NCBI GenBank assembly: GCA_951406725.2
Contig: OX597822.1
Location: 115,258,001 to 115,322,000 of the forward strand
Reading direction: 5' to 3'
DNA from: Octopus vulgaris
Taxonomy: Eukaryota
Length of the DNA: 64,000 bases
Part shown: piece after piece, positions 948 to 63,696 of the stretch
Layout: each line of letters opens with the position of its first letter
Position numbering within the stretch: the stretch's first letter is position 1
The notes under the pieces: generated by a model
Told to the model about the DNA's origin: nothing
The model's database searches: none
What the model saw: the letters and a program-made list of their open reading frames with translations, nothing else
Position numbers and translations under genes: made by a program

Positions 948-1990
948 GTTTCTTTATTGGCCACACAGGGCTGCACACAGATGGGACAAGTTACAAGGTA
1001 GAGCTTTTCTTTTGGGGGATGAAAAAAACAAAAGAAACAAAAAAAGGGGTGGCGTAGGTTTTCGATCAAGAGGGATCGTAAAAGGGAAACAAAAAAAAAA
1101 AAATAAAAAAAAAAAAAGAAAAATTTAAAAAAAAAGAAGAAAAAAGGAAAAGGAACAAAAGAAAAGAGAAATGAAAAAGAAGAAAAAATGGGAAGAAAAG
1201 GGGAAGAGGAAAAAAAACCGATCAATAGGGATCGTGTATCACAGTGTTATGATATATGGTGTAAAGGGGAAAGCAAGTAAGGTTTATCCATGGGAAGAAA
1301 AGCCTACGAAAAAGACCACGGTAACCTTGGTCAATATTGTTATATGTTACCACATTTGTTTGCAAGTGGGTAACCCTCTGTTTTCAATTTCTGGGTTCAT
1401 AGGATTATGCTCAAGGTGGCTTCGTCATTCATACGTGCCATCCTTGCTACATTCACCCATCTTTTTTTAAAACATTCGCTAGACAAAACATTGCCTCTCT
1501 ACTCTCACTTTCCTTTTCAAGTGGTACTTGAAGAAGTTGATGAGAGATTGACCAGAGAGGAAAGTGTTTGTCTCCAATCCTTTCAGACGCGTCCACCAGA
1601 TACATTCTTTCGCCATAGCCACAAGGATGATGAAAATAGCTCTTCCTTCCCGTTTGAAGGAAGGAGGCGTGACAATATTGACGATAGACTCAGCTGATAA
1701 ACCGACTCGTCCCACACGCGACAGCAGTTGTTCGACATAAGCCCACAGGTCGGAAATTGTTGGACACTGCACGAGTGCGTGCAGAACGGTTTCGTCGCTC
1801 TGACCGCATCTCGGGCAGGTCGGCCCCGTGTTTCTCGAGCCGTGTCTGTAGAGCTTATCCCGAACGGGTAGCGCTTCTCGGTAGCACTGCCAGGCCAGGG
1901 ATCTCTGGAAGTTGTCCATGGGCCCTGGCCCGAAAGTCGTCCCGAACAGGCGGGTCAGGTACTCCTCGTCGACGTCCAGGTTCATCCCTC
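947..1990 (-). mobile_element. 5'-truncated Tx1/L1-clade LINE: ORF2 C-terminus plus 3' UTR
   Basis: ORF 1479-1985 has a zf-RVT-like motif (LAWQCYREALPV...CPRCGQSDETVLHALVQC...LW). It is followed by a T-rich 3' UTR, AATAAA near 953-958 on the minus strand and a (TATC)n tail. Confidence 0.85.
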
Positions 1991-2542
1991 TGATGCTAAT
2001 AAAATAAAGATTCAGTCAAGTACTGGAATCGATGTAATTCACTTGCACACCGCTCCCACTCAAAACTGTAGGCCTTATGCCAACATTAGAAAGAATTATT
2101 CCCTGATTAACGAAAGAGGCAGCACATAGATATTCAAAAAATATTTAGCTTATTTCATTTTCTTTATGCAACTTATGTCAGATATGTGCCTAAGTAGTGT
2201 TTATTCACCGTATTTATTCATTTTATTTGTATATCTATTTATTTATTTATTGTTGAAGTTATACGAGTTTGCTATATTTGTGGTCGTTGCTGATTGATTG
2301 TTCCCTACAACCTCGGCATTCATGAAGTATACGACACGATTGAAGCAGACGACAACGACAAAATCAGACGACAGCGACAAAAGCTGGCGACAGCCAGAAA
2401 TAAAGGTGTGGTTTGTATGTAACAGTGACTATATCCGTTTCGGAAAATCCCACCGGAAGTTCCTGTCATGATCAATCCAGATAAAACTATTTTCTCAGCT
2501 TGAATATTCAAGTTCAATTTCTTTCCATCATGTTTATATTGC

Positions 2543-23099: not shown

Positions 23100-23540
23100 G
23101 AGACAGACGCGTCTTTATGTGTGTGCATATATCTAAAATAGCCTAATTTTCTGAACGTCTATAAATGGCTTGTAATTGTCGTGTCTTAATAAGCCGTGTC
23201 CTTTCTTTTGCAAAAGCTCTGATTCTCAAGATAGCGCCGATGCGGTTAATTACATAACTAAATGGCCCAATGAACACAAACATACCGGTATAAACTTAAA
23301 GTGTATGGTTGAGGTGCCATATACTCTTTTGCTCTTTTACTTGTATCAGTCATTTCACCGTGGCCATGCTGGAGCACCGCCTTTAGTCGACCAAATCGAT
23401 CCCAGGACTTATTCTTTGTAAGCCTAGTACTTATTCTATCGGTCTATTTTGCCGAACTGTTAAGTTACGGGGACGTAAACACACCAGCATCTGTTGTCAA
23501 GCTATGTTGGCGGAGACAAACACAGACACACAAACATATA

Positions 23541-23606
<66 letters not shown>

Positions 23607-23757
23607 AATTAAGGACTGAACACGAAAAGTGGACAGTCAACATGCTAGATATAGACGTCAAATCGCCATTCACCACAAAAGATTATGTTCTCAGATCAAA
23701 CTCAGCACAAAACCATAGCAATAAACAAGTGAAAAATATACGAAATAAAATAATTAC

Positions 23758-23821
23758 CCATGTACTAATTAGTTTCGACTGTTATTTTCCGCAAGGAAAA
23801 CTGCAGCCATCATCAGCATGG
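23758..23821 (-). ncRNA. Canonical type I hammerhead ribozyme
   Basis: Minus strand: CCAUG CUGAUGA U GGCUG cag UUUUCC uugc GGAAAA uaa CAGUC GAAA CUAAUUAG UA CAUGG. Full core, 5-bp stem I, palindromic stem III, GUA cleavage triplet. Confidence 0.9.
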
Positions 23822-24155
23822 TCCGTTATAAATGTAATTTGCTGGACTAGATGCAAACACGATACCGAAATATCGCGTGCATGGAGTTCAGCCTATTACA
23901 TTTGAATATATCTTTCAAATGCCTTCACTTTGGCGCGTTGAGACCCGGGTCTCAACGCGCCAAAGTGAAGGCATTTGAAAGATATATTCAAATGTAATAG
24001 GCTGACTCCATGCACCGATATTTCGGTATCGCGTCTCAACGCGCCAAAGTGAAGGCATTTGAAAGATATATTCAAATGTAATAGGCTGAACTCCATGCAC
24101 GCGATATTTCGGTATCGTGTTTGCATCTAGTCCAGCAAATTACATTTATAACGGA

Positions 24156-24209
24156 CCATGCTGATGATGGCTGCAGTTTTCCTTGCTGTCGAAACTAATT
24201 AGTACATGG
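24156..24209 (+). ncRNA. Canonical type I hammerhead ribozyme (mirror copy, stem II shortened by about 10 nt)
   Basis: CCAUG CUGAUGA U GGC u GCAG uuuucc UUGC u GUC GAAA CUAAUUAG UA CAUGG. Confidence 0.82.
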
Positions 24210-24902
24210 GTAATTATTTTATTTCCACTTGTTTATTGCTATGGTTTTGTGCTGAGTTTGATCTGAGAACATAATCTTTTGTGGTGAATGGCATTTGACG
24301 TCTATATCTAGCATGTTGACTGTCCACTTTTCGTGTTCAGTCCTTAATTGGTATATATAAATATTTTAATCTTCGGATTCTTTTTTAATATGCTAGACCA
24401 CTGGTCTTAATTGATAAATATCAATTTCTACCCTTAATTAATTTTATATATTTATATATATATATATATATATACGATGGGCTTCTTTCAGTTTCCGTCG
24501 ACCAAATCCAGTCACAAGGCTTTTGTCGGCCCGAGGCTATAGTAGAATACACTTGTCTAAGGTGCCACGCGGTGGGACTGAACCCAGAGCCATGTGGCTC
24601 TTAAGCAAGCTACTTACCATACAGCCACTCCTACGCCTATCTGTATTTTTCATATTTGTTTCTCGAGGACTTTGTCGTTACAGCTACTTCACAACCGATT
24701 TCTGCTGCTTTTAACGCATTTTTCGGTTCGTCCCAAAGCACTGCGCCTGGGTTCTTATTATACATTGGTTTCGACAGAGACATTGCATCACCATTTTTTT
24801 CATATTATGAGTATACTTCCACATTGCAGACAACTTCGTATCGTTTGATATTAAAGCTTATCCTTTGTACAGAGATTATTGTGTAGTGTTTGGGCCACGG
24901 TG

Positions 24903-26081: not shown

Positions 26082-27099
26082 CAGGGGTTGAACAAAGTAA
26101 TGGAAACACCTAGCATAATAGCATTATAATTTTGAAATATCTATAAAGCCTTCAAGAGCTTGTTTATTTTTATGGTTTTTGATTAATTATTAGTGTTGCT
26201 TAAAATGTTTTGCTAAAATTGCTGTTTCTTTTCAGATGTCATCCGAAGAAGGTAATTTAAATTCATTAAAAAGACAGATCTATCAGACTTTCAAAGAGAT
26301 CAAATTGTTGGTGCTCGTATGGCAGTTGCTAGCGTAACGGAAGCAACCGAAATGTTTGGTGTATCATGAAATACTGTCTAGAAAGTAATTACAGCTTTTG
26401 AGAAAGATGGAAAAACCTCCTCTTGGAAACAAAACTCCGGAAGAAAGCCAAAACTTTCAGATAGGGACCGTCGGACTCATGCGAATTGTTAGAAAGAATC
26501 ACAAAAGCACAGCTCCCAAAATTACTGCAGAGCTTAATGACCACCTCGAGAACCCAGTTTCCACAAAAACTGTTCGCTGGGAGCTGCACAAAGCCGGATT
26601 TCAGGGAGAGCTGCACAAAGCCGGCCCAGTGGTTTCCCTTCATAGCAGAATTAATTGTCGAGATTATTTAAGCATTTTATCTGATCAAATTCATCCTATG
26701 ATTGCGGAACTGTTTCCGCAGGGAGACGCAATCTTTCAGGATGATAATGCACCAATTCACATAGCTAAAGTTGTTACTAAATGCCACGAGAAACATTCTA
26801 ATGAAGTTGAACATCTTATCTGGCCACCACAGTCCCTAGATCTCAATATTATTGAACATTTATGGTGCATTTTAGAAAAATAAGTAAGGAGTCGATATCC
26901 TCCACCATAATCACAACAAGAACTGGAGACTTTTTAGCCGAAGAATGGACAAAAATTCCTTTGGAAACAATTCAGACTTTGTACGAGTCCATACCTCATA
27001 GAATTCAAGCTGTAATTACTGCCAAATGTGGTCCTACCCCATATTAAAATAAATTTGTTTGAAATTTTAAGGTGTTTCCATTATTCTGTCCAACCCCTG
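26082..27099 (+). mobile_element. Tc1-family DNA transposon, internally deleted, non-autonomous
   Basis: TA target duplication (26080-81, 27100-01). TIRs CAGGGGTTGAACAAAGTAATGGAAACACCT / AGGTGTTTCCATTATTCTGTCCAACCCCTG. Confidence 0.95.
26270..27046 (+). pseudogene. Tc1-like transposase pseudogene
   Basis: N-terminal HTH-like region DLSDFQRDQIVGARMA...FGVS*NTV*KVI. Catalytic C-terminal half FQDDNAPIH...WPPQSLDLNIIEHLW...AVITAKCGPTPY. Stops, frameshifts, and the first catalytic D region is missing. Confidence 0.92.
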
Positions 27100-63237: not shown

Positions 63238-63294
<57 letters not shown>

Positions 63295-63301
<7 letters not shown>

Positions 63302-63634
63302 TAAATAAGAGTAGGAATTGATATTAATCAGTTAAAACCAGTGGTCTAGCAAAAATGGTGATTTTGATGTCTATATCTAGCACAGTGGTTTTCAACCAGG
63401 GTTCCGCCAATACAGTCCAGGGGTTCCGCAAGAAGTTACAAAACTGCTAAAATCGTCAGTAATTTTTAATTCTCCTGTGCAGATATGTGTGCATAAAACT
63501 ATTAAATTATTGCACAGGGGTTCCTCGAGGCAGTGGAATGTTTCCTTGGGGTTCCGCTCCAACAAAAGGCTTGAAAAACACTGATCTGGCATATAGGCTG
63601 TCTATTTTTTTAATGGTCAGTCCTCTAAATTTTG

Positions 63635-63640
<6 letters not shown>
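63295..63640. mobile_element. PLE-type terminal remnant (inverted tail piece joined to forward piece), interrupted by a hAT MITE
   Basis: 63295-63352 is the reverse complement of 24390-24450. 63353-63382 plus 63592-63640 match 24288-24355. Confidence 0.7.
63383..63583. mobile_element. hAT (Charlie-like) MITE
   Basis: TIRs CAGTGGTTTTCAA / TTGAAAAACACTG, 8-bp TSD ATCTAGCA / ATCTGGCA, repeated subterminal GGGTTCC motifs. Confidence 0.9.

Positions 63641-63696
<56 letters not shown>

Follow-up and report, generated by a model that had tools for sequence, protein, structure and literature searches.

A young hammerhead retrozyme insertion in a TA microsatellite of Octopus vulgaris, likely copied by a PLE reverse transcriptase and endonuclease

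Non-LTR retrozymes of metazoans have been defined and tied to Penelope-like elements (PLEs) in PMC7229834 (Cervera and de la Pena 2020) and bioRxiv 10.64898/2026.07.22.740005 (Li, Clavereau and Pollet 2026), and the latter describes a retrozyme consensus length that varies widely. The word "inverted" does not occur in the main text of the former; in the latter it occurs once, in a reference. PLEs that carry an endonuclease have been described with adjacent inverted pLTRs, and a 31-bp tail is optionally present on one inverted pLTR (PMC3846280). The same paper reports abundant head-to-head structures and reads the palindromes at their junctions as products of self-priming. PMC8557442 describes this layout as well, together with (TA)n targets and tandem forms that are non-autonomous, and calls the formation of these structures unresolved. 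The enzyme of Anolis Poseidon was studied in vitro (PMC11167929). It has two initiation sites that match the tail, both strands are cut and extended, and a dimer is predicted. Hammerhead cleavage required protein there, and the text consulted does not describe how inversions form. The literature search found no paper with a strict end-pairing rule or with twin priming by PLEs, its scope being such that subscription papers and supplements outside it may describe the rule. It also found no paper on hammerhead retrozymes in octopus.

The locus described here lies in a window of 64,000 nucleotides (the whole stretch of DNA that was analyzed) from the O. vulgaris genome. Two partial copies of a hammerhead-bearing repeat stand head to head between two TA microsatellite runs (Table 1).

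Anatomy of the insertion and its hammerheads

Table 1. Coordinates of the features at the locus, in window positions.
Feature	Position	Strand	Description
Left (TA)n target run	23574..23604	.	Adjoins the tail of a very abundant SINE-like repeat (about 23322-23560)
Whole insertion	23605..24446	.	Two head-to-head 5'-truncated partial unit copies between (TA)n runs; both ends uncertain by a few TA bases
Left arm	23605..23946	-	342 nt; unit positions 1 to about 345; stops at fixed site A
Left hammerhead, type I, complete	23758..23821	-	CUGAUGA, GAAA, long stem II, short stem III with AAUU loop, GUA triplet
Perfect spacer-less palindrome	23888..24005	.	59-bp stem; centre 23946|23947
Extra central copy of the first 84-88 unit bases	23947..24030	+	Two single-base deletions
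Right arm	24031..24446	+	Unit positions about 1 to 440; stops at fixed site B
Right hammerhead, type I, stem II minus 10 nt	24156..24209	+	Predicted cut after 24204
One-sided tail	24352..24446	+	95 nt; unit sequence between sites A and B
Right (TA)n target run	24447..24475	.	Adjoins the tail of a second abundant SINE-like repeat, minus strand (about 24476-24640)

The preliminary description of this DNA reported a perfect centre with no spacer, and this was borne out; the 32-nt centre motif has a single occurrence genome-wide. It also gave a palindrome of about 750 bp with near-identical arms. The left arm has the expected length, but the uninterrupted perfect stem is only 59 bp and the remaining pairing of the arms spans an 84-nt bulge. 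The right end had been set at 24351, but unit sequence continues for a further 95 nt. Compared with the left arm, the right arm has 84 additional nt at the centre and lacks 10 nt in stem II of the hammerhead (about 24187), 10 nt at 24226 and 1 nt at 24293. There are zero further substitutions. The copy is 98% identical to a reference unit and has no same-strand tandem.

The view of the locus as a young, inverted, PLE-type insertion stands. The arms, which had been taken for pseudo-LTRs of a coding element, are instead parts of a non-coding tandem retrozyme unit. A "P.LN" end of a GIY-YIG domain had been tentatively seen in a frame that crosses the centre, but its D and P are contributed by the antisense arm over the junction. 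The peptide DPGLNAPK was rejected as a GIY-YIG C-terminus. It is a product of the junction, and the same frame in the family reads ...FSGFNAPK followed by a stop.

Both hammerheads had been placed exactly, and both had been called intact. The left motif folds as type I, with a predicted cut between 23763 and 23762, and its fold beats those of shuffled sequences (z -3.37; 0 of 200 shuffles as good). The right motif does not share this property: its stem II is reduced to a short, weak helix, and its fold does not surpass those of shuffled sequences (z -0.51; 54 of 200 as good). Its deleted form of stem II occurs once genome-wide. Rfam gave no hits at gathering scores over the whole window and, up to E 5, only chance matches driven by microsatellites and no hammerhead. 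The hammerhead was thus identified by its core motif, its fold and covariation; Rfam may miss it on account of the long stem II.

Sixteen hammerhead variants were aligned. Paired cells make up 97.2% of the total, and two-sided changes are present in four pairs, in stems II and III. The number of cells with a two-sided change exceeds that in all 500 shuffles, and the count of four pairs was matched in 56 of 500, in an alignment of related sequences whose stem I and core were set by the search pattern. The alignment contains CUGANGA, GAAA, a NUH triplet and stems I-III with an open stem I, as in type I hammerheads, and self-cleavage is predicted. The short stem III with its self-complementary loop matches the metazoan type I motif as described in PMC4209133.

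The repeat family and the place of this copy within it

The unit is a non-coding tandem repeat of 505-507 nt. When the genome (G000; 2.8 Gb in 227 contigs) was searched with the left arm, 1,831 candidates were retrieved; the 40 that were scored are 98-100% identical, and many are about 506 nt apart. Four motifs were counted, each with a reversed control that gave 0 matches. There are at least 406 exact matches to a 23-nt hammerhead motif, at least 626 matches to a gapped hammerhead pattern, 1,013 to a motif ahead of site B, and at least 1,516 to a 26-nt motif near (ahead of) site A, all of which are counts of units and not of loci. Arrays reach 7 units, with a hammerhead every 505-507 nt. The three sense frames of a doubled unit are full of stops and hold no long ORF, and the unit has no meaningful tblastn match to a PLE protein of the same genome (best E 4.4). 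Judged by these sequence features, the family is a non-LTR retrozyme, with a predicted type I hammerhead in each tandem unit and no coding capacity.

Older relatives, with 73-88% identity, have the same layout, and one has a tandem unit junction; the lineage therefore seems to have been non-coding over a long time. An older relative is also present in the window at 63282-63655, between TA runs, with its B end on the minus arm and its A end on the plus arm. This copy is broken by a roughly 200-nt element with terminal inverted repeats, similar to a hAT-type MITE and flanked by a near-perfect 8-nt duplication.

Insertion ends were compared in 99 distinct loci, including the one in the window, nearly all of them on contigs C1-C4. 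The sample comprises all 39 clusters in the first 100 listed matches of the 23-nt hammerhead motif, 25 new clusters (and 9 already in the set) from the first 100 listed matches of the site-A motif, 5 loci found with the site-B motif, and 20 of 24 further clusters of sister subfamilies, picked from the first 100 listed matches of the gapped hammerhead pattern. Thirty older-family loci were left out of the count because they had been retrieved with an A/B query.

Head-to-head inversions, in which minus copies are followed by plus copies, make up 79 of the 99 loci; the other 20 are direct. The 3' ends sit at two fixed places 95 nt apart, site A (unit position about 345) and site B (about 440). 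One A end is combined with one B end in 74 of the 79 inversions. Not one inversion is A/A or B/B, and five have one non-standard end. When the five loci chosen by the B-side motif are dropped, the A/B combination is found in 69 of 74. All readable ends, 63 A and 59 B, continue into TA-rich sequence; (TA)n as the target and TA added on insertion are not separable in these data, which include no empty site. In the window the A end is on the left and the B end on the right, so that the right arm holds 95 nt that are absent from the left. The locus is in itself an ordinary copy and is not special within the family.

A consensus fold of the region between A and B, from 31 copies, has 30 predicted pairs, with two-sided change in only 2; a conserved structure in this region is at most suggested. 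The older family (L221-L250, alignment A2) has TATGTAAAA internally at site A rather than TATATATAAA. This is less like TA, and the copies still end there, so initiation seems not to need long homology to the target. Three direct insertions (L072, L080 and L091) have their 5' end at site A or B itself. They are whole-unit copies joined via the short TA-like stretch of the unit.

The indels of the right arm had been suspected as sequencing errors, and the suspicion is upheld by a strong excess over other copies. There are 4 singleton indels in 484 bp of the right arm and 13 in 36,971 bp of the direct and long-spacer inverted loci (P about 3e-5). In inversions whose spacer does not exceed 70 nt, 11 were counted in 12,493 bp (P 0.023 compared with the rest). 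The three deletions (two of 10 nt, one of 1 nt) are absent from the other copies examined. Short-read contig depth is zero over the joint of the 84-nt duplicate in 4 of 4 runs, and in the bins of the deletions it is zero in 3 of 4 runs and low in the fourth. Nanopore reads have been described to miss bases after inverted junctions (PMC7229812). The balance leans modestly toward consensus errors, rather than biology, as the source of the deletions and of the duplicate. Instability of a real hairpin is the alternative for the deletions, and the duplicate could reflect either template re-entry or an assembly error.

The same indel excess and base loss would also fit a more radical reading, in which the whole second arm is a fold-back chimera of sequencing or assembly and the true locus has a single arm; no contig bridges the centre. 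This reading is very improbable. A fold-back would mirror the left flank, whereas the right arm runs 95 nt beyond the left one, to site B, and into a different flank, and A and B are paired in 74 of 79 loci. Short-read contigs from X2 and X3 join a minus to a plus family arm, several of them near unit 240-250, as in many assembled junctions; the inversions of the family are thus independent of this assembly. The contigs of six runs, none of which bridged the centre or an empty site, are uninformative on the locus either way, given its repeat and microsatellite flanks and runs that are probably from other individuals.

An RNA that reads through the whole element would, on either strand, contain the antisense arm before the ribozyme, as had been noted from the sequence. 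Its predicted fold has about -606 (plus) and -613 (minus) kcal/mol and about 366 pairs. Cleavage had been expected to compete with this hairpin. Such competition is doubtful, since forcing the hammerhead fold costs a predicted 81-82 kcal/mol relative to the long hairpin, and any read-through RNA is predicted to bury the ribozyme. There is no full unit between two same-strand ribozymes; the copy therefore cannot release a monomer and is a predicted dead end, which would yield double-stranded RNA only upon read-through. Family sequence is present in two runs that are guessed to be RNA. It has family-type letters where the window differs, says nothing about this locus, and shows neither transcription nor circles.

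The geometry, with a read-through hairpin of about 366 bp, would suit a selected device, a source of hairpin RNA for siRNA or A-to-I editing with a ribozyme switch, and small RNAs from rotifer Penelope copies are described in PMC3846280. We give this idea hardly any weight. Insertion normally leaves this layout behind (79 of 99 loci), the copy is young with a unique centre, and the ribozyme fold is disfavored by about 81 kcal/mol. An ORF scan near the locus found no host exon; the frames of at least 150 codons, three of which were checked against Pfam, are transposon remnants and repeats. They include a Tc1/mariner-type transposase remnant at window 26389-26883 (plus) and a zf-RVT-bearing non-LTR retrotransposon remnant at 1479-2015 (minus).

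Templates, priming and the probable mover

The two arms of an inverted locus start at most 10 unit positions apart in 24 of 65 loci, where 20,000 shuffles gave 6.2 on average and never more than 18; this count is imprecise for diverged copies, and BLAST-based ends overcounted matched starts (29/65) relative to two stricter methods (24/65 and 21/65). In 65 inverted loci measured, the spacer is 0 in 5, at most 3 nt in 12 and at most 10 nt in 21; 7 loci were unmeasurable. Starts are also clustered within the unit, with 62 of 130 arm starts at positions 220-279. There are many short near-perfect palindromes in which both arms stop near 240-250, among them L161, L174, L175, L178, L202, L205, L208 and L210 (unit positions about 225-280). 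The clustering suggests that the RNA has a preferred 5' end, or that copying stalls, about 55-65 nt downstream of the cut predicted at 185.

Private variants were compared in the 39 hammerhead-selected loci and the window. Thirteen locus-private substitutions, 2 of them in the window, are present in both arms, and none of them is missing from any copy that spans its position. Another 41 are confined to one arm; 37 of these are in a single copy, and 4 are found in two or three. The shared variants suggest a single RNA molecule as the usual source of both arms and a monomer stage in the making of multi-unit arrays, in line with the rolling-circle model of retrozymes. A homogeneous source array outside the sample, gene conversion or polishing could also give this pattern. 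Variants common to two or three neighboring units of one arm only were observed in L067, L087, L092, L095 and L098, and a single error-free monomer template does not explain them.

A search with the Pfam GIY-YIG model, which scored 150 of 6,136 candidates and which divergent clades such as Hydra may escape, identified an abundant PLE family in the genome. It has an open frame of 781 codons with matches to RT and GIY-YIG, a Cys-rich linker and ends in (TA)n, and its sequence is read as putatively Neptune-like by the description in PMC8557442. The unit has no nucleotide match in 30 GIY-YIG loci (of 148 matches) or in five full loci of the 781-codon PLE, ten divergent GIY-YIG loci are without unit motifs, and no linked ORF was found in 30 older-family and 20 sister-subfamily loci. 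In none of the loci examined is PLE-like coding sequence joined to the unit. The nearest remnant (L266) is on the opposite strand about 600 nt away.

Young copies of the 781-codon PLE (L216:3745-7172 on contig C16 of G000, and L217-L220) have direct pLTRs, (TA)n flanks and two alternative 3' ends about 35 nt apart. They carry a minimal hammerhead-like motif with the core UUGAUAA, in which the usual C3-G8 pair would be replaced by U3-A8. L085:7471-8518 holds head-to-head 3' fragments of a different PLE, with 33-36% identity to the 781-codon protein; in this pair the same inversion habit is seen in a coding element.

The locus is best explained, with good though incomplete assurance, as a young insertion of a non-coding hammerhead retrozyme into a TA microsatellite, with a PLE as the likely supplier of the reverse transcriptase and endonuclease that copied it. 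The enzyme, probably as a dimer, would cut (TA)n, and both DNA ends would serve as primers. One primer would start at site A and the other at site B on the same RNA, which is probably a circular or multimeric monomer produced by the ribozyme. The two cDNAs would then be joined through their 3' ends to give divergent arms, and a perfect palindrome would result where both stop at the same unit position. Several observations sit less easily with this explanation. An autonomous partner was not found among the 30 GIY-YIG and five 781-codon loci, the tail exceeds the 30-40 bp in print and the unit the 170-400 nt of retrozyme RNAs, and a single error-free monomer template does not explain the 41 private substitutions that are limited to one arm, 4 of which recur in two or three copies. 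The pair count of the covariation was reached by 56 of 500 shuffles with stem I fixed by the pattern, and no read or contig was seen to bridge the centre of this locus.

Inversion could alternatively arise by self-priming in the same family with the same PLE mover, if one cDNA, or an antisense RNA, folded back on itself and primed its own copying. Such a process was proposed for the junction palindromes of rotifer Penelope (PMC3846280), and it would account for the excess of near-perfect palindromes (spacer of at most 10 nt in 21 of 65) and for variants common to both arms. However, a fold-back copy that runs to the end of its template should yield A/A or B/B, which none of the 79 inversions has. 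Either arm may be the longer one, by whole units, and at many junctions the arms are separated by bases that are untemplated or mismatched, which also speaks against a fold-back. Self-priming is accordingly given a small probability, and the strict pairing of ends favors double priming at two fixed sites. A stronger form of double priming is more speculative. PLE insertion could be an obligatory double event, in which the dimer always primes both ends, A and B, on one hammerhead-made circle and the cDNAs are joined head to head; this is a serious but tentative proposal, with the odds somewhat against it.

The origin of the inverted copies and tails of PLEs is an open question named in PMC8557442. 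If obligatory double priming is true, a single model would account for the tail and the inverted pLTR of PLEs, for the palindromes at junctions and for the homogeneity of retrozyme arrays, and the protein-free template of 507 nt, whose two sites are 95 nt apart, would be a compact test substrate. Strict pairing of one A with one B end, together with a long and easily scored tail, separates self-priming from double priming. The family leaves hundreds of short near-perfect palindromes in TA microsatellites, which are a possible source of double-stranded RNA and of assembly errors.

Comparison with known systems

In twin priming of L1, a single RNA is primed from the two ends of the target, and its 5' part comes out inverted; there is no overlap between the parts, and the position of the second site varies. 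In the octopus family, by contrast, the arms are copies of one and the same sequence, and the positions of the two sites are fixed.

The in vitro reactions of Anolis Poseidon (PMC11167929) share with these insertions a distance between internal sites that equals the tail, an AT-rich target, cutting and extension of both strands and a predicted dimer. The start site did not differ between the strands there. The start sites of the octopus unit are in AU-rich sequence with some likeness to TA, and the template is non-coding.

Endonuclease-bearing PLEs (PMC3846280; PMC8557442) have in common with these insertions an inverted 5'-truncated copy, partial tandems, palindromes at junctions, a tail on one end, (TA)n targets and a hammerhead in the repeat. 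The octopus units differ in having no RT or GIY-YIG ORF inside or beside them. Their tail is 95 nt long, compared with 30-40 bp in print, and it is one-sided in 74 of 79 inversions, where the papers call it "optional" or present "often".

The metazoan non-LTR retrozymes (PMC7229834; bioRxiv 10.64898/2026.07.22.740005) likewise consist of low-GC units in tandem, which are non-coding and have a type I hammerhead apiece; they have no ORF and occur dispersed, from monomers to multimers. Self-cleavage and expression in tissues as linear and circular RNAs belong to the published retrozymes, whereas the octopus family is known from DNA. Its unit of 505-507 nt, compared with RNAs of about 170-400 nt in PMC7229834, is taken as an extension of the size of retrozymes and not as a different kind. 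It differs from them in that most of its insertions are inverted, with two fixed ends in (TA)n.
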